From Candidatus Nealsonbacteria bacterium (GTDB lineage Bacteria; Patescibacteriota; Minisyncoccia; Minisyncoccales; MHMH01), in the NCBI GenBank assembly GCA_016181965.1, contig JACOYH010000003.1, positions 65,013 to 129,012 on the forward strand: 64,000 bases of DNA, written 5' to 3'. Position 1 is the first letter of the stretch, and each line of letters starts with the position of its first letter. The position numbers and the translations under genes were made by a program. Below are positions 16,881-62,983 of the stretch, in pieces. The notes beneath the pieces are model-generated. The model saw only the letters and a list, made by a program, of their open reading frames with translations. It ran no database searches and was not told the DNA's origin.

Positions 16881-16909
16881 AATGAGTCGAGAACCGTTCT
16901 CGACTCATT
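16881..16909. repeat. Perfect palindrome with 14-nt arms
   Basis: AATGAGTCGAGAAC-C-GTTCTCGACTCATT. Confidence 0.8.
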
Positions 16910-24787: not shown

Positions 24788-24835
24788 GAATACACCGGTG
24801 CCACCGGTGTATCTACACCGGTGGCACCGGTGTAT
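24788..24835. repeat. Nested palindromic doublet (two inverted copies of hairpin ACACCGGTG-S-CACCGGTGT)
   Basis: AATACACCGGTGCCACCGGTGTA-TC-TACACCGGTGGCACCGGTGTATT, with 23-nt perfect arms, followed by ATTCTTTTGTTTT. It probably also terminates rpsI. Confidence 0.85.
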
Positions 24836-24852
24836 TATTCTTTTGTTTTATT

Positions 24853-24892
24853 AAGCGACTTCGGGAGTCGCGTACGCGACTCCCGAAGTCGC
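24853..24892. repeat. Nested palindromic doublet (19-nt arms)
   Basis: AGCGACTTCGGGAGTCGCG-TA-CGCGACTCCCGAAGTCGCT. Each arm is itself a hairpin. It ends 12 nt before the ATG at 24905. Confidence 0.85.
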
Positions 24893-24904
24893 TAAATTAT
24901 ATTT

Positions 24905-29566: not shown

Positions 29567-29589
29567 TAGCGAGAAACGATCCCGCTAAT
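29567..29589. repeat. Half copy of palindromic repeat family B
   Basis: TAGCGAGAAACGATCCCGCTAAT is identical to 62961-62983. With its flank it forms a 7-bp hairpin ATTAGCG/CGCTAAT. Confidence 0.75.
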
Positions 29590-31255: not shown

Positions 31256-32509
31256 ATGAGGCAATCAGAACTTTTTGCCAAAATAAAAAAGGAAGCGCCA
31301 AAGGACGCAGAAAGCATTTCCCACAAGTATTTGGCGAGAGGTGATTTTATTGACCAGGCGGCCTCGGGCATTTACAGCTTTTTACCGTTGGGCTGGAGAG
31401 TGCACAAGAAAATCGAGAATATTATTCGTCAAGAGATGTTGTCTGTTGGCGGTCAAGAGATTTTTCTGCCTGTTTTAACCCCAAAAAAGTTTTGGCTGGA
31501 AACGGGCAGGTGGCAAACAATCGACCCGCCGCTTTTTAAATTCAAAGACCGCCATGGCTCCGAGCTTGCCCTGGGTCCAACGCACGAGGAAATTATTACC
31601 GACCTTGTCAGGCGAAGAGTAAAATCCTATCGCGACTTGCCGCTCTATCTTTTCCAAATTCAGGATAAGTTTAGAAATGAAATGCGGGCTACCGGTGGCT
31701 TGCTGCGCGTCAGGGAATTTATTATGAAGGATCTATATAGTTTCCATCAAAGCCCGAAAGATGCGAAAGAATTTTACGAAAAAGTTAAAAAGGCCTATCT
31801 GCGGATTTTCAAGCGTTGCGGCTTAAATCCGGTCGCCGTGGAAGCAGACCCGGGCACTATCGGCGGAGAAATGTCGCACGAATTCATGGTGCTTTCTGAA
31901 ACAGGCGAAGACAAGGTTCTGGTTTGCAAAAAGTGCGGATTTGCGGGGAACATTGAAAAATTCCAAGATATTAAAATCTGCCCCAAGTGCCAATCAAACC
32001 TTGAAAAGTTTTCTGCCATTGAGTCAGCCCACGCTTTTTATCTGGGAACAAAATACAGCAGCCCAATGGTTGCCAATTTTATTGACAAGAAAGGCGGGCA
32101 AAATCCCGTTATTATGGGCTGTTACGGCATTGGGCTGGGGCGGCTCATGGCAACGATTATTGAAGCCAACCACGATCAGCGTGGTATTGTGTGGCCGATT
32201 GAAGTGGCGCCGTTTGCCTTGCATCTGATTCCAGTTGGCGGATCGGCCAAAGTAACGGCCGCGACTGACAAAATTTACGATAGCTTGAAAAAAGCGGCGA
32301 TGGATGTATTATATGACGACAGAGTAGAGAAAACGCCCGGAGAAAAGTTTGCCGAGGCGGATCTGATTGGCATACCTACGCGGTTGGTGGTTAGCGAAAA
32401 AACCCTAGAAAAGAATTCAGTCGAAATCAAGAAACGCAACGAACAAAAAACAAGATTGGTTAGATTAGCTAAGCTAAGCAACCAGTTGCTTAGCTTAGCT
32501 AAGCAATAG
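31256..32509 (+). CDS. proS: Prolyl-tRNA synthetase
   Basis: The ATG at 31256 gives MRQSELFAKIKKEAPKDAE... It has class II motifs (FRNEMRATGGLLRVREF, GCYGIGLGRL). Confidence 0.9.
   Translation: MRQSELFAKIKKEAPKDAESISHKYLARGDFIDQAASGIYSFLPLGWRVHKKIENIIRQEMLSVGGQEIFLPVLTPKKFWLETGRWQTIDPPLFKFKDRHGSELALGPTHEEIITDLVRRRVKSYRDLPLYLFQIQDKFRNEMRATGGLLRVREFIMKDLYSFHQSPKDAKEFYEKVKKAYLRIFKRCGLNPVAVEADPGTIGGEMSHEFMVLSETGEDKVLVCKKCGFAGNIEKFQDIKICPKCQSNLEKFSAIESAHAFYLGTKYSSPMVANFIDKKGGQNPVIMGCYGIGLGRLMATIIEANHDQRGIVWPIEVAPFALHLIPVGGSAKVTAATDKIYDSLKKAAMDVLYDDRVEKTPGEKFAEADLIGIPTRLVVSEKTLEKNSVEIKKRNEQKTRLVRLAKLSNQLLSLAKQ
32465..32502. repeat. Palindromic repeat family C, inside the proS 3' end
   Basis: TTAGCTAAGCTAAGCAAC-CA-GTTGCTTAGCTTAGCTAA. 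It encodes the last residues ..LAKLSNQLLSLAKQ*. Confidence 0.8.
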
Positions 32510-36981: not shown

Positions 36982-37016
36982 TAAGAGTGTTAGACATCGG
37001 ATGTCTAACACTCTTA
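36982..37016. repeat. REP family A copy
   Basis: TAAGAGTGTTAGACATCGGATGTCTAACACTCTTA, a 16-bp hairpin with a CGG loop. Confidence 0.85.
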
Positions 37017-42760: not shown

Positions 42761-42859
42761 CGAAAAGGGGTCAGGTCCCTTTTTTTGAATCGAGTCAAAA
42801 AAAAGGGACCTGACCCCTTTTCGGACCCGGACCTTTTCGGACCTGACCCCTTTTCGGAC
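42761..42859. repeat. 26-bp inverted repeat plus short direct repeats (family D)
   Basis: The arms are CGAAAAGGGGTCAGGTCCCTTTTTTT and AAAAAAAGGGACCTGACCCCTTTTCG, separated by an 11-nt spacer. ACCTGACCCCTTTTCGGAC then recurs at 42808-42826 and 42841-42859, and CCTTTTCGGAC occurs 3 times. Confidence 0.8.
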
Positions 42860-43300: not shown

Positions 43301-43305
43301 GCCGT

Positions 43306-43350
43306 GCCGAGGACTGTCCTTGCCAGAATCTGGCAAGGACAGTCCTCGGC
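43306..43350. repeat. 45-nt perfect palindrome
   Basis: GCCGAGGACTGTCCTTGCCAGA-A-TCTGGCAAGGACAGTCCTCGGC. Confidence 0.85.
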
Positions 43351-43378
43351 AAACTCGGCAGAATATACCGATTTTGGT

Positions 43379-44195: not shown

Positions 44196-44243
44196 ATTGC
44201 TTAGCTTAGCTAAGCAACTAGTTGCTTAGCTAAGCTAAGCAAT
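44196..44243. repeat. Palindromic repeat family C, abutting the rplK start codon
   Basis: ATTGCTTAGCTTAGCTAAGCAAC-TA-GTTGCTTAGCTAAGCTAAGCAAT, with 23-nt arms. The rplK ATG is at 44244. Confidence 0.85.
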
Positions 44244-49859: not shown

Positions 49860-51308
49860 ATGACTTACGAGCCCGTTATCGGCCTTGAAATACACGCTGA
49901 ACTGAAGACCAGGAGTAAAATGTTTTGCTCTTCGGCCAACGATCCAAATGAGCGGCATCCCAATGTTAATATTTGCCCTGTTTGCATGGGGCATCCGGGA
50001 ACTTTACCGGTTACCAATGGAGATGCAGTGGGAAAAGTGATCAAGACCGGACTTGCCCTCAATTGTCAAATTCGGGAAAGCTCAAAATTTGACAGAAAGA
50101 ACTATTTTTATCCCGACCTGCCCAAGGGCTATCAAATTTCTCAATACGATATGCCCCTTTGCGGTGAGGGGTTTCTTGAAGTTGGGGGCAAGAAAATAAG
50201 GATTACGCGGGTACACTTAGAAGAAGATACGGGCCGGCTGCTTCACCCCGAAGGCGCCGATTATACCTTAGTGGATTTTAATAGGGCGGGAGTGCCCTTA
50301 ATGGAGCTCGTCACAGAGCCCGATATATCATCGGGCGAAGAGGCGTGGAAATTTGCCCGAGAGCTGCAGCTGATTTTGAGATACCTCGGTGTTTCAGATG
50401 CCGATATGGAAAAGGGGCAAATGAGGGTTGAGGCAAATATCTCTATGTCAAAAAACTCAAAACTTGGCACTAAAGTTGAAATTAAGAACTTAAATTCTTT
50501 CAGGGCCGTTGAGAAGGGCATCGCTTATGAAATTGACAGACAGGAAAAAATTCTGAAAGCAGGTAAAAAAGTCATTCAGGAAACGAGAGGGTGGAATGAA
50601 GCCAAGGGAGAGACATTTTCCCAAAGGGCCAAAGAGGAGGCCCATGATTATAGGTATTTTCCCGAGCCCGACTTGCCTCCGCTTCGTCTGGATAACGAGA
50701 GGATAAGAGAAATTTTATCTGAAATTCCAGAAATTCCCTCGGTCCGGCGCAATCGCTTCAAAAGCGAATACCAAATTGGCGATCGGGAAATCGAGATATT
50801 TGTTTTCAATAAGGATTTAGGGGAGTATTTTGAAGAAGTAATGTCTGAACTTAAAGGATGGGATAAAGTAAGCCAAGGCGAATTTTTTGAGCTGGCTAAG
50901 ATATGCGCCAATTATCTGATTAGCGATCTGCGGGGCTTATTGAAGGGGTTGCCTTTTTCCCAAGACGATTTGCAGATTACGCCCGAAAATTTCGCGGAAT
51001 TGATGACCATGATCCACCGGGGGCAGGTCTCAAGCAAGATGGCAAAGCAGGTTTTAACTGAAATGTTTGCCTCGGGCGGCGATCCCTCGCAGATTATTGA
51101 AGAGAGGGGGCTGGTTCAAATTACCGACGAAACGGCAATAGAAAAAATAGTGAAAGAGGTCATTGCGCAAAATCCAAATCCGGTAGCTGATTTCAAAAAA
51201 GGCAAAGAAAATGCTTTGCAATTTCTTATGGGGCAGATAATGCAGAAAACGCAAGGCAGGGCAAATCCAGACGCTGTTCGCAAAGTTCTCAATCAAGAAA
51301 TGCTTTGA
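49860..51308 (+). CDS. gatB: Asp/Glu-tRNA amidotransferase subunit B
   Basis: YEPVIGLEIHAEL...CPVCMGHPGTLP...NRAGVPLMELVTEPD...LMGQIMQKTQGRANP. Confidence 0.95.
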   Translation: MTYEPVIGLEIHAELKTRSKMFCSSANDPNERHPNVNICPVCMGHPGTLPVTNGDAVGKVIKTGLALNCQIRESSKFDRKNYFYPDLPKGYQISQYDMPLCGEGFLEVGGKKIRITRVHLEEDTGRLLHPEGADYTLVDFNRAGVPLMELVTEPDISSGEEAWKFARELQLILRYLGVSDADMEKGQMRVEANISMSKNSKLGTKVEIKNLNSFRAVEKGIAYEIDRQEKILKAGKKVIQETRGWNEAKGETFSQRAKEEAHDYRYFPEPDLPPLRLDNERIREILSEIPEIPSVRRNRFKSEYQIGDREIEIFVFNKDLGEYFEEVMSELKGWDKVSQGEFFELAKICANYLISDLRGLLKGLPFSQDDLQITPENFAELMTMIHRGQVSSKMAKQVLTEMFASGGDPSQIIEERGLVQITDETAIEKIVKEVIAQNPNPVADFKKGKENALQFLMGQIMQKTQGRANPDAVRKVLNQEML

Positions 51309-51333
51309 TTGGCTTCATAGCCATCGATGCAAG

Positions 51334-52106
51334 ATGTTAGACATCCGATGTCTAACATTAGACTAACATTAAAATATTTATTCTAGGAGAAGGTTTTCTG
51401 TTATTTCTACGAGTGATTTTTTTGGTTTAGTTTTAGCAGTGCTTGTTTTAACAAATTCATCATAAGCATTGGCATTGGGGAATTGATCGAGAATAATGTT
51501 TGGTCTTAAAAGTTTGTCCCAGCGATTTTTTACAACAAGATCTTGATAGCTCGACCAGAAATATTTTAGTTCCTTATTTTCCCATTCTTTTATTTCTCGT
51601 GGATTGCGATGGATGTACGCAGAAAGATAAAGAAGCTGTTCGTCGGTTTCCACTGGAATAGCGCGGAAAGCGCCCTGGAAAAGATGCCCCCGTTTTTTAT
51701 ATTTTGTATTGAAATATTTCGCGTATCCATTTTGGAGACGTTGGAGATAAAGAGAGATGCCCTTGTTAGTTTTTTCCTGCACGAGAAGATGAAAATGGTT
51801 GGGCATTATCGTAAAGATGTTGAGCTCTACCCTTCTCATTGCTATTACTTTTTTGAGTGCATCTGTAGAGAGGTTAAACATTGAATGCTTAACAAAATAA
51901 GAGATTTGGCGGCTAATATTATAGAAGGGAATGGATGCTTGGTAAAAAAGGATAAAAAATAGGAATCGAGCATAATCCCTCTCGTCGAGAAATATGGGGC
52001 GCTCGTCATTACTCCTATTACAAATATGATAATACGAATCTTGAATGAATTTAGTTTTCCTTCGCATTACCTTAATATATCATGTTAGACATCGGATGTC
52101 TAACAT
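51334..52106 (-). mobile_element. REP - RAYT - REP unit
   Basis: The Y1/HUH transposase-like ORF is bracketed by ATGTTAGACATCCGATGTCTAACAT (51334-51358) and its inverted form ATGTTAGACATCGGATGTCTAACAT (52082-52106). Confidence 0.7.
51378..52067 (-). CDS. REP-associated tyrosine transposase (IS200-like Y1 HUH family)
   Basis: 229 aa with MPNHFHLLVQ (HUH), GHLFQGAF and LSAYIHRNP (Tyr motif). Confidence 0.75.
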   Translation of the reverse strand: MRRKTKFIQDSYYHICNRSNDERPIFLDERDYARFLFFILFYQASIPFYNISRQISYFVKHSMFNLSTDALKKVIAMRRVELNIFTIMPNHFHLLVQEKTNKGISLYLQRLQNGYAKYFNTKYKKRGHLFQGAFRAIPVETDEQLLYLSAYIHRNPREIKEWENKELKYFWSSYQDLVVKNRWDKLLRPNIILDQFPNANAYDEFVKTSTAKTKPKKSLVEITENLLLE

Positions 52107-52109
52107 ATT

Positions 52110-53003
52110 TTAAAGATATAAAAAATCATTTAGCAAGGTTTCTGCTTCTTTGTAGCTTTCAACCCAACGGATGCGCTTGTCTCGTTTAAACCATGTCATT
52201 TGGCGCTTGGCAAAATGTTCTATGGCTCTTTGAAGCTTTTCTTTCATCTCTTCGTAATTGAGGCATCCCTGCAGATATTCGGCAATATATCTGTATTCCA
52301 AACCGAAACTCTCTAGACGCTTCCACGACAAGTGGGATTTTTTTAGTCGCTTCACTTCAGCAACCATGCCTTGCCGAAGCCGTTTGTTCAGCCGCTTGTA
52401 AATTGCATCTTTTAATTCTGTGGTAGTTTTTCTGATGCCAATAATAAGTATGGGGTAGGGAAGCGGTTTTTGTTTCAGAGAGGGAACCGGCTTTTTAGTT
52501 TTTATGATAATCTCCAGCGCCCTGATTAGCCGCCGCCTATTTTTTGTTTCAATATTTTCAGCTCTCCTCGGGTCAAGTTTTTCAAGTCGTTTGAGCAATT
52601 GTTCGGTGTTTAGCCGCTCAAGTTTCTGCCGTAGCCGCCAATCGGGCTTTACTTTCGGTATAACAATGCCGTCGATCAGAGCGTATATATAAAAGGCGGT
52701 TCCGCCGCATATAATGGGCACTTTGCCCTTTTTGAAAATCCTATCGAGTTCTCTTTGGGCCAGATTTCTGTACTGAACGACCGTGAATTTTCTTTTTGGC
52801 GAGGCAACATCTAAAAGATAGTGGGGAATGCCTCGCATTTCTTTTTTGTTTATTTTACCGGTTCCAATATCCATGCCCCTATATACCTGCCTCGAATCGG
52901 CCGATATGATTTCGCCATTGAATTGCTCAGCGATTTGCACCGCCAAGTCCGACTTGCCGGAAGATGTTGGCCCCAAAATAACAATAATTTTCTTATTGGC
53001 CAT
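52110..53003 (-). CDS. miaA: tRNA dimethylallyltransferase
   Basis: IVILGPTSSGKSDLAVQIA...ISADSRQVYRGMDIGTGK...PHYLLD. Confidence 0.9.
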   Translation of the reverse strand: MANKKIIVILGPTSSGKSDLAVQIAEQFNGEIISADSRQVYRGMDIGTGKINKKEMRGIPHYLLDVASPKRKFTVVQYRNLAQRELDRIFKKGKVPIICGGTAFYIYALIDGIVIPKVKPDWRLRQKLERLNTEQLLKRLEKLDPRRAENIETKNRRRLIRALEIIIKTKKPVPSLKQKPLPYPILIIGIRKTTTELKDAIYKRLNKRLRQGMVAEVKRLKKSHLSWKRLESFGLEYRYIAEYLQGCLNYEEMKEKLQRAIEHFAKRQMTWFKRDKRIRWVESYKEAETLLNDFLYL

Positions 53004-60135: not shown

Positions 60136-60471
60136 ATGTTAGTAATTCGCCTATTAAGGACGGGAAAAAAGAATCAGCCGACTTTTAAGGTTGTGGTAAC
60201 CGACAAGAAGAATCCGCCTCGAGGTGGCCGTTTTGTGGAGGAGGTAGGTTTTTACAATCCCGTCAAAAAACAAAGGAAACTGAAGGGGGAGAGGATTCAA
60301 TATTGGATTTCTAAGGGGGCACAGCCGTCCGACACGGTATACAATATGCTGGTTTCAGATAAAATTGTTGAGGGCAAAAAGAGGCCTAGCCACACGAAAG
60401 TGGAAAAACCCGTAGAAGTGCCAAAGGAAACGTCAAAAGAAGAAAAACCGGCAGAAGCCGTCCAATCTTAA
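60136..60471 (+). CDS. rpsP: 30S ribosomal protein S16
   Basis: MLVIRLLRTGKKNQPTFKVVVTD...GFYNP...IQYWISKGAQPSDTV. Confidence 0.9.
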   Translation: MLVIRLLRTGKKNQPTFKVVVTDKKNPPRGGRFVEEVGFYNPVKKQRKLKGERIQYWISKGAQPSDTVYNMLVSDKIVEGKKRPSHTKVEKPVEVPKETSKEEKPAEAVQS

Positions 60472-60501
60472 AAGTGTTAGACATCGGATGTCTAACACTT
60501 T
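60471..60501. repeat. REP family A copy
   Basis: AAAGTGTTAGACATCGGATGTCTAACACTTT, a 14-bp hairpin. It overlaps the last base of the rpsP stop and ends 2 nt before tRNA-Ala. Confidence 0.85.
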
Positions 60502-62929: not shown

Positions 62930-62983
62930 ATTAGCGGGATCGTTTCTCGCTAGTAATTACTAGCGAGAAACGATCCCGCTAAT
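62930..62983. repeat. 54-nt perfect palindrome, repeat family B full doublet
   Basis: ATTAGCGGGATCGTTTCTCGCTAGTAA|TTACTAGCGAGAAACGATCCCGCTAAT. All 27 pairs were checked by hand. Confidence 0.9.

Follow-up and report, generated by a model that had tools for sequence, protein, structure and literature searches.

The window analysed here is a 64-kb stretch of DNA (64,000 nucleotides) from a Candidatus Nealsonbacteria bacterium of the Candidate Phyla Radiation (CPR; contig JACOYH010000003.1, 194,735 bp, of the metagenome-assembled genome GCA_016181965.1, positions 65,013 to 129,012). It carries on its minus strand a gene for a 229-aa Y1 (HUH/Tyr) nuclease/transposase-like protein (51378-52067), bracketed by copies of a 25-nt hairpin, ATGTTAGACATC-S-GATGTCTAACAT. 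We interpret this gene and its hairpins as a mobile Y1 element resembling REPtrons and TIRtrons, whose hairpins also spread in trans, and assign to this reading a probability of about 0.68. Judging from the sequence, the locus would be a compact mobile element composed of a single-stranded DNA nuclease/transposase similar to TnpA-REP and to the REP-associated tyrosine transposases (RAYTs; REP, repetitive extragenic palindrome), two hairpins that the protein would recognise, and a third, decayed copy lying in frame within the gene. The data show the class of the enzyme, its pairing with cognate hairpins, the overlap of a hairpin with the promoter and the presence of the internal copy, and also that the unit and one solo hairpin are polymorphic insertions.

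An earlier interpretation of the window made without database searches (the sequence-only reading) had described a 229-aa minus-strand open reading frame (ORF) of Y1 type with the motifs MPNHFHLLVQ and SAYIHRNP. Both motifs are present at that place, and the protein matched Pfam Y1_Tnp (PF01797) over residues 68-155 with a score of 44.7 bits (threshold 23, E=1.7e-11). The HUH motif corresponds to H91 and H93 (NHFH), the catalytic tyrosine is Y151 in YIHRNP, and the tail contains the motif WSSY. In 30 homologues (54-80% identity to the query) H91, H93 and Y151 were invariant, and conservation extended over the whole length of the protein. The public annotation (MBI2042334.1) gives a 153-aa 'transposase' starting at Met77; as conservation in the homologues covers all 229 aa, this start was mis-called. 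The tyrosine motif of the protein is of the form Y..NP, which is the signature of class 2 (TnpA-REP-like) proteins, while Y...Q is that of TnpA-IS200 (PMC6006769). Among the NCBIfam models, REP_Tyr_transpos (NF047646) ranked well ahead of transpos_IS200, with 43.3 bits (equivalog cut-off 80) and 13.9 bits (cut-off 55), respectively, neither reaching its cut-off.

A fold search was needed because a sequence search of solved structures returned a weak match to ISDra2 alone (E=0.27). The AlphaFold (AF2) model of the protein (predicted local distance difference test 79.8, predicted template modelling (TM) score 0.81), in which Y151 stands at the end of helix 142-152, was submitted to Foldseek. The best relevant match was 4er8_A, the E. 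coli TnpA-REP with a REP hairpin (probability 1.0, target-normalised TM 0.57), followed by the TnpA proteins of ISDra2 and IS608 (2xm3, 2a6m; probability 1.0); the target-normalised TM ranged from 0.47 to 0.57 across the three. Matches to Thg1 that were ranked at the top were judged spurious (root mean square deviation 15-19 Å). The RAYT class proposed by the sequence-only reading is thus supported by the Y..NP motif and the TnpA-REP fold, although the NCBIfam cut-off for such proteins was missed. The protein also has a tail of 70 aa and, separating its first strand from the HUH strand, an additional segment of ~30 aa; no Pfam match to a C-terminal helix-turn-helix (HTH; Bac_DnaA_C, HTH_23, HTH_28) was found at E<=1.

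The family is large: clustering at 50% identity gave 16,935 clusters at E<=1e-3 and 5,314 at E<=1e-10, the locus-level evidence coming mainly from groundwater and CPR assemblies. Relatives outside CPR were at most ~31% identical. A PHROGs search gave no match, viral contigs yielded one weak match (29%), plasmids gave matches of at most 31% identity annotated as 'transposase', and an Rfam scan returned tRNAs only. The Y1 element thus corresponds to no known gene of phages or plasmids, and the hairpin to no known RNA family. Next to the Y1 gene lie gatB (49860-51308, plus strand) and miaA (52110-53003, minus strand), and no tnpB is found there. A tblastn search with the protein found a single copy in the window.

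The hairpins had been placed within 20 nt of each end of the gene, and this was confirmed. The downstream copy, ATGTTAGACATC-C-GATGTCTAACAT (51334-51358, central base C on the plus strand), starts 19 nt past the stop codon, and the upstream copy, ATGTTAGACATC-G-GATGTCTAACAT (52082-52106, central base G on the plus strand), lies 14 nt ahead of the ATG. The opposite orientation that the sequence-only reading had described is correct as to the central bases; however, it amounts to one base, since the remainder is a perfect palindrome, and among the homologues the flanking copies were inverted in 22 cases, direct in 25 and ambiguous in 3. The 23-nt core occurs four times in the window (at 36988, 51335, 52083 and 60475) and never appeared in 100 shuffles, with up to 3 mismatches tolerated, which supports the claimed dispersal in the window. 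The dispersed copies were further said to lie at gene ends. This applies to the solo hairpin at 60471-60501 (stem 15 bp, AAAG..CTTT), a clean 31-nt palindrome without gene remnant between the rpsP stop codon and the gene for tRNA-Ala, but not to the one at 36982-37016 (stem 17 bp, TAAGAG..CTCTTA), which lies in an intergenic region: an unannotated ORF ends 92 nt before it, and a site resembling a promoter follows closely, ahead of pheS.

Each hairpin has a perfect AT-rich stem of 10-11 bp with a 3-nt loop and 3-4 G:C pairs out of 11. Folded as single-stranded DNA, the four window copies gave -8.8 to -14.7 kcal/mol (z = -7.6 to -9.5). The foot is (A)TGTT, and an adjacent GTAG or GTGG was absent at the copies inspected. 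No doublets of the cognate hairpin were found, all four window copies being singlets. A terminator scan called none of the four, and no T-run follows them; their interpretation as intrinsic terminators was dropped on these grounds. The spacer between the downstream hairpin and the gene (51359-51377) contains a partial repeat of the hairpin arm, which by sequence inspection reads TAATGTTAG-TC-TAATGTTAGAC on the gene strand, and the same TAATGTTAG duplication is found in the homologue L106 (loci of other genomes are designated by L and a number).

The upstream hairpin lies across part of the predicted promoter. The best promoter-like site of the region on the gene strand consists of TAGACA (52102-52097), a spacer of 17 nt and TG-n-TATATT (52079-52074). 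The predicted -10 box with its upstream TG (TATATT, 52074-52079, minus strand) ends 6 nt ahead of the ATG, and the hairpin overlaps the predicted -35 box and the spacer, TAGACA lying in its left arm. In the homologues, a -10-like box also follows the upstream hairpin, and for 18 of 44 of them precisely 6 nt separate its end from the ATG; such a spacing would imply a leaderless mRNA. This promoter layout suggests that binding or extrusion of the hairpin may autoregulate the Y1 gene. In IS200, end-proximal hairpins control expression.

We gathered ~95 homologous loci. Among the 84 homologues with complete flanks, 53 had a palindrome on both sides of the gene, and in 50 it was the same one on both sides. 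In 400 geometry-matched window pairs taken from the same loci, palindromes on both sides were found 5 times and a shared palindrome never. This control was preferred to a covariation statistic, which would be circular, because the hairpins had been preselected as palindromic. In the clade of the window protein, the outer stem TGTTAGAC/GTCTAACA is kept, while the apex varies by compensatory pairs that are alike on both flanks of a gene: ATC-S-GAT in the window, GTC-G-GAC in L018, and GCT-NR-AGC in L019 and L021. More distant proteins have other hairpins, such as TGTTGGACAC.., TGTTCAACAC.., TGTGCAA.., TGTCAAA.. and ..AAGGTTCAACCTT.. Paralogues within one genome follow the same rule. In L021, a paralogue 31% identical to the query lies 8 kb from one that is 69% identical, and it is flanked on both sides by the unrelated AAATACAGGGGTTGCACCCCTGTATTT; in L104, CTTAGAAACGGGGTTTCGAAACCCCGTTTCTAAG stands on both sides of a second paralogue. 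In dozens of homologues each Y1 protein lineage has its own palindrome, which is the pairing of protein and palindrome that defines REPtrons.

The exact 23-mer was found in 13 assemblies among 185,579 species-representative genomes, with 1-4 copies in each. These assemblies are labelled Saccharibacteria, Parcubacteria and others, and in L011 and L017 the identical 23-mer stands beside Y1 proteins with just 53% identity to that of the window. Because the same 23-mer occurs across distant CPR lineages the hairpin is not species-specific, unlike REPs, and copy identity cannot be used as a clock: the active or recent dynamics proposed in the sequence-only reading are not readable from it. One of the sequences with the exact CPR hairpin is an 8.8-kb contig binned as 'uncultured Gammaproteobacteria' (L005, CAZCKV010000022.1), which may be a mis-binned CPR contig.

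Solo hairpins were also seen near the homologues, at a density of ~0.3 per 10 kb (11 in 369 kb of flanking DNA), in addition to the 2 in the 64-kb window. Eighteen of 20 solo copies were extragenic, mostly directly past stop codons. The stems of solo copies are lengthened by variable complementary bases, by a mean of ~2.7 bp where 0.33 would be expected (hand count on the flanks), and the form 'AAAG-core-CTTT' recurs in several genomes. The core is frequently preceded by AAAAS. The two solo hairpins within ORFs of at least 100 aa, at position 2358 of L004 (in a radical-SAM gene beside miaA) and at position 3614 of L007, could be in-frame copies or artefacts of ORF calling. Downstream of a Wzy_C/TPR gene, 98 nt separate two variant hairpins (apex ATCGGAT and ATTGAAT; L015 3908 and 4006; in the same genome, L104 15486 and 15584), which may mark where a Y1 unit began and ended before its deletion. 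Half-hairpin tandem duplications, made of one arm and the loop and with breakpoints at the loop, stand beside many copies (L009 7738-7790, L107 450-485, L003 7239-7285, the downstream flanks of L024 and L053, and window 51359-51377). They hint at footprints of apex cleavage, and replication slippage is an equally possible origin.

The Y1 unit is an insertion. The closest syntenic relative, L113 (miaA 83%, gatB 85% and radical-SAM gene 87% identical), and a second one, L114 (miaA 73%, gatB 81%), show the gene order of the window, namely the radical-SAM gene, miaA, convergent gatB and DeoC (DeoC being seen in L114 alone, as the L113 contig ends within gatB). A comparison of insertion sites among relatives had been suggested with the sequence-only reading, and it was informative: the Y1 gene is absent from the miaA/gatB junction of both L113 and L114, where miaA and gatB overlap by 20 nt tail-to-tail. 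In a local alignment, homology with L113 ends at window position 51328 and restarts at 52157, and L113 is continuous there apart from 4 nt. The whole inserted segment (51329-52156, minus strand) is 828 bp long; after 5 nt it holds the Y1 gene between its two hairpins, and it closes with 50 nt which now encode the end of miaA. These 50 nt (52107-52156, minus strand) provide a new C-terminal tail of MiaA, YKEAETLLNDFLYL, with its stop codon, and have no DNA similarity to the miaA tail of the relatives. The original tail, ..SMAMKPIKAFLD with its stop codon, is stranded on the other side of the unit (51289-51333, minus strand), as identified by translation and alignment with L113 and L114; this remnant is non-coding, antisense to the gatB stop and overlaps gatB by 20 nt, as in the relatives.

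A possible origin of the foreign 50 nt is indicated by the closest Y1 homologue, L107, which is 79% identical at the protein and ~80% at the DNA level. In that genome the Y1 unit also follows miaA, with gatB further on, and it lies between direct repeats, ~35 bp long and 81% identical, of the miaA tail. The new miaA tail of the window resembles the miaA tail beside the L107 unit (KEAENLVKKFL) and not the old tail of the window. Whereas the Y1 proteins are 79% identical, the neighbouring genes of L107 and the window are much more diverged (miaA 59%, gatB 58%). The simplest reading is that the Y1 unit arrived horizontally together with a stretch of donor miaA tail, an independent site-specific insertion being the alternative. 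We considered whether the insertion in the window had duplicated a 45-nt target and rejected this, as the new and old miaA tails are ~33% identical (DNA, hand count).

Mobility is further indicated by the distribution of the family. Y1 homologues at 69-77% identity adjoin unrelated genes, and related genomes contain several paralogues as well as a frameshifted copy (L014) and a remnant (L021); these paralogues share 30-72% identity with the query and differ in their hairpins. The single-copy RAYT of the sequence-only reading, taken as a domesticated gene, is not supported: the 828-bp insert is missing from the two closest syntenic relatives, and paralogues and decayed copies exist in related genomes. 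A solo hairpin is polymorphic as well. At the orthologous rpsP/tRNA-Ala junction of L109-L112 (S16 84-90% identical) the hairpin is absent and rpsP runs directly into tRNA-Ala. A comparison of L019 with L020 at the hairpin was uninformative on a rearrangement breakpoint, because homology extends ~240 bp beyond it. In L039, L044 and L047, the Y1 gene again abuts the 3' end of gatB. These genes belong to a distant Y1 lineage (42-45% identical), and their 3' end overlaps that of gatB (L047 4260-4928/4899-6293, L044 5998-6645/6638-8077, and L039). They occupy the place held by miaA in the relatives of the window, and there is no ORF of at least 100 aa within 1.7 kb upstream. Two features were seen near the rpsP junction of the relatives. 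In L111 and L112, rpsP is followed by a truncated 5' half of tRNA-Ala, ~20 nt, and a complete second tRNA-like gene, a layout which suggests rearrangement or integration at a tRNA. The L109 and L110 contigs end 40-45 nt after rpsP, inside the tRNA-Ala gene, which agrees with a fragmentation of CPR assemblies by repeats, either tRNA or hairpin, at such sites.

A third copy of the hairpin lies within the Y1 gene. Comparison with the flanking copies and with those of L107 revealed a degenerate, in-frame hairpin, GTTAAGCATTCAATGTTTAAC (51873-51893, minus strand), which covers codons 59-65 (VKHSMFN). It differs from the flanking copy at 5 of 21 positions, and by 2 changes from TGTTAAACATTCAATGTTTAACA, which is both the internal and the downstream hairpin of L107. 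It still folds, at -3.6 kcal/mol (z = -4.3). Such internal copies are common in the family: 24 of 51 distinct homologous genes harbour their own flank hairpin within the ORF, allowing up to 3 mismatches in ~21 nt, a situation met in none of 51 shuffled genes. All but one of the 24 copies are centred 166-200 nt from the ATG and 62-120 nt ahead of the HUH codon. The position is thus conserved in lineages 30-72% identical, while the sequence tracks that of the flank hairpin. The heptapeptide encoded by the internal copy varies with the hairpin (VQSSTLN, TKHSVSS, NQGGALM, REGLTFT and others), which indicates that the DNA element dictates the peptide and not the reverse. In the literature searched, we found no precedent for a conserved internal site ahead of the HUH codon that tracks the flanks.

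A wider proposal, which we put forward tentatively and hold to be possible though doubtful, is that these genes form a CPR-wide, previously undescribed subclass of RAYT-like Y1 proteins with three sites, one at the promoter, one internal and in frame, and one in the terminal hairpin, the internal copy being a functional target of the enzyme that is kept matched to the flanks. If this were true, the internal hairpin would be a built-in device for self-regulation or self-inactivation, acting for example as a roadblock, as an operator or in a programmed cutting that removes the 215 nt nearest the promoter. Signals resembling promoters and terminators would likewise be seeded by these hairpins at the ends of host genes, in genomes otherwise nearly repeat-free.

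By analogy with the TnpA proteins of IS608 and ISDra2 and with TnpA-REP, the mobile Y1 element could work as follows. The Y1 protein would bind the hairpin in single-stranded DNA, for instance in the lagging-strand template, cut beside it through Tyr151 and the HUH-bound metal, and rejoin the strands. Through this cutting and rejoining the hairpin-bounded gene would move, and single hairpins would be planted in trans at the ends of genes. The gene would throttle its own expression when the promoter hairpin, and perhaps the internal one as well, is bound or extruded. The element would spread between CPR lineages, and in the present case 50 nt of a donor miaA tail seem to have come along with it.

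Several points weigh against this interpretation. The right edge of the insertion lies 50 nt past the hairpin, which fits recombination-mediated acquisition better than clean Y1 transposition. A near-identical second copy of the Y1 gene was seen in no genome examined, so that recent self-transposition is not demonstrated. Copy numbers are low, and mobilisation in trans is weakly sampled, by one orthologous empty site and scattered solo copies. The binding of the hairpin, the cleavage site and the strand specificity of the Y1 protein are all attributed by analogy, and a dimer could just as well use the perfect palindromes as sites in double-stranded DNA. Of five AF2 models of the protein, only one was confident. 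Finally, the counts for the Nealsonbacteria genome itself cover the 64-kb window.

Among the closest known systems is the REPtron, as typified by E. coli TnpA-REP (a RAYT of Quentin subclass 2.2 or Bertels Group 2; PDB 4ER8; PMC3479197, PMC2817692). REPtron and window locus both have a Y1 HUH/Tyr protein with Y..NP, cognate palindromes which bracket the gene and are dispersed in extragenic DNA, and one palindrome per protein lineage, and TnpA-REP is the best relevant structural match. The differences are that the window protein, at 229 aa, has the ~30-aa insertion before the HUH strand and the 70-aa tail and scores below the NCBIfam RAYT cut-off, that its hairpins are perfect and AT-rich, without GT[AG]G foot or bulge, that in the DNA covered they are seen in few copies where hundreds are usual, and as singlets, not as arrays of REP doublets (REPINs) or bacterial interspersed mosaic elements, and that the unit itself is inserted and moves between lineages. 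By motif inspection against Table 1 of PMC6006769 and by length only, the protein is nearest to subclass 2.1, the TIRYTs of TIRtrons (Bertels Group 1; De Nocera et al.; PMC3733652, PMC6006769, PMC5581495). The TIRYT motifs NH[YF]H, FQ, Y[IV]H.NP and the SS tail have their counterparts in NHFH, LFQG, YIHRNP and WSSY, and the median TIRYT length of 238 aa is close to 229 aa. TIRYT-flanking repeats are sometimes self-complementary and form moderately abundant families, and TIRYTs are the most IS-like group of RAYTs (IS, insertion sequence), with duplicates and plasmid copies. In contrast to TIRYTs, the window protein has no detected C-terminal HTH, the GGGGWSAS repeat is not at the Y1 gene, where TGTTAGAC hairpins are found instead, each flank is a complete hairpin and not one arm of a long terminal inverted repeat, and there is a conserved in-frame internal copy. 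Quentin et al. (PMC6006769) did not find REP-like structures in subclass 2.1. A cognate palindrome within the gene with an intact frame is shared with the subclass 2.4 RAYTs of Cyanobacteria and Bacteroidetes (PMC6006769); however, their in-frame REPs are of GTAG type and lie at variable places between HUH and Tyr, whereas here one position ahead of HUH is conserved.

Other explanations of the same data have to be weighed. The locus might be a plain IS200-type IS with tnpA only, its hairpins being the left and right ends and the solo hairpins excision scars or decayed remnants. The fold, the catalytic residues and the presence of end hairpins on a ~0.7-kb mobile unit are indeed shared with IS200, IS608 and ISDra2, the unit has the size of IS200 (~0.75-0.8 kb) and is filled by the Y1 gene, and its insertion polymorphism, multiple contexts, paralogues and pseudogenes, as well as the hairpins ~98 nt apart in L015/L104 that could be the ends of a deleted copy, would all be accounted for. 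We nevertheless consider this unlikely. The tyrosine motif is Y..NP and not Y...Q, and the NCBIfam IS200 score was 13.9 bits against a cut-off of 55. IS200/IS605 elements have distinct, imperfect subterminal hairpins at their left and right ends, on the same strand, and often a tnpB partner, whereas the window unit has no tnpB and ends on both sides with the same perfect palindrome, whose orientation is random family-wide. The paralogues within a genome are 30-70% identical, and no near-identical multi-copy set was found in the 64-kb window or in the related genomes. Moreover, the solo hairpin between rpsP and tRNA-Ala is a clean 31-nt palindrome without trace of a gene, and an internal in-frame copy is foreign to IS200.

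Conversely, the gene might be a domesticated REPIN-RAYT, that is, a single-copy, vertically inherited and immobile RAYT which maintains a genome-wide population of REP/REPIN hairpins. The class 2 RAYT-like protein with TnpA-REP as best relevant fold match, the cognate palindromes flanking the gene and dispersed extragenically, the other palindromic doublet families of the window and the single Y1 gene in 64 kb are as this explanation would have them. In REP/REPIN-RAYT systems as described by Bertels and Rainey, however, the hairpin is imperfect and GC-rich, has GT[AG]G at its 5' foot and occurs in inverted doublets at tens to hundreds per genome, and the RAYT is single-copy, vertical and at a fixed locus. 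The hairpins studied here are singlets with 1-4 exact copies per genome in 13 assemblies and no GT[AG]G foot, the protein score (43.3 bits) is below the NCBIfam cut-off of 80, and the unit is inserted, being absent in the nearest relatives. Between distant genomes the Y1 gene is more conserved than the flanking housekeeping genes, most close homologues lack synteny, and related genomes have several paralogues. A domesticated RAYT is therefore improbable, and the terms REP and REPIN used in the sequence-only reading do not suit this hairpin. A still poorer candidate, to which we give very little credence, is that the hairpins are mainly host expression signals (terminator, insulator or operator) dispersed by selection, the Y1 protein acting as a hairpin-binding regulator. 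The overlap of the upstream copy with the promoter, the location of the downstream copy and of most solo copies after stop codons, and the extension of solo stems (~2.7 bp against 0.33 expected), as under selection on stability, agree with such a role. It is contradicted by the terminator scan (0 of 4 hairpins called) and by the invariance of the catalytic HUH and Tyr residues, and identical 23-mers at non-homologous sites in 13 genomes together with an empty orthologous site indicate copying and not convergence.

The kind of system, a Y1 gene with cognate flanking palindromes, is already known. Compared with the literature searched, in which we found nothing linking RAYT, REP or IS200 with CPR or Patescibacteria, its CPR host range, the scale of the family and the conservation of perfect hairpins across distant lineages appear to be new, as do the arrangement of three sites, one of them a conserved in-frame copy, the hairpin that overlaps the promoter and the clear evidence of mobility. 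The function of RAYT-class Y1 proteins and the spread of their palindromes are unsettled beyond a few Proteobacteria. The family offers an unusually clean pairing of protein and hairpin, with perfect 23-25-nt hairpins, one per lineage and 2-3 per gene, hence many ready-made cognate protein/DNA pairs for studies of specificity. It also offers natural empty sites and movement between lineages within otherwise streamlined genomes, and its conserved in-frame internal site is unexplained by current REP/RAYT models. On the practical side, the Y1 family likely causes contig breaks and mis-annotated gene starts in CPR metagenome-assembled genomes, as with the 153 aa given by NCBI in the present case.

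The window contains other palindromes. The sequence-only reading had mentioned at least five further families of palindromic doublets, and several were found as perfect palindromes at 24789-24836, 24850-24897, 44196-44243, 32465-32502, 43305-43351, 62930-62983 (with a single copy at 29567-29587) and 16881-16909. They are inverted doublets of a shorter hairpin and are REPIN-like. Among them, TACACCGGTG-S-CACCGGTGTA and GCGACTTCGGGAGTCGC each come twice, as does TTGCTTAGCT-W-AGCTAAGCAA, at two sites. These doublets were not found in ~110 loci of other genomes, and no second Y1 gene was found in the window. In addition, a 26-nt inverted repeat at 42761-42823, with a third partial copy near 42838, contains GGGGTCAG, which fits the GGGGWSAS of TIRYT-flanking repeats (PMC3733652). 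Being flanked by A/T runs, this inverted repeat may simply be a bidirectional terminator.

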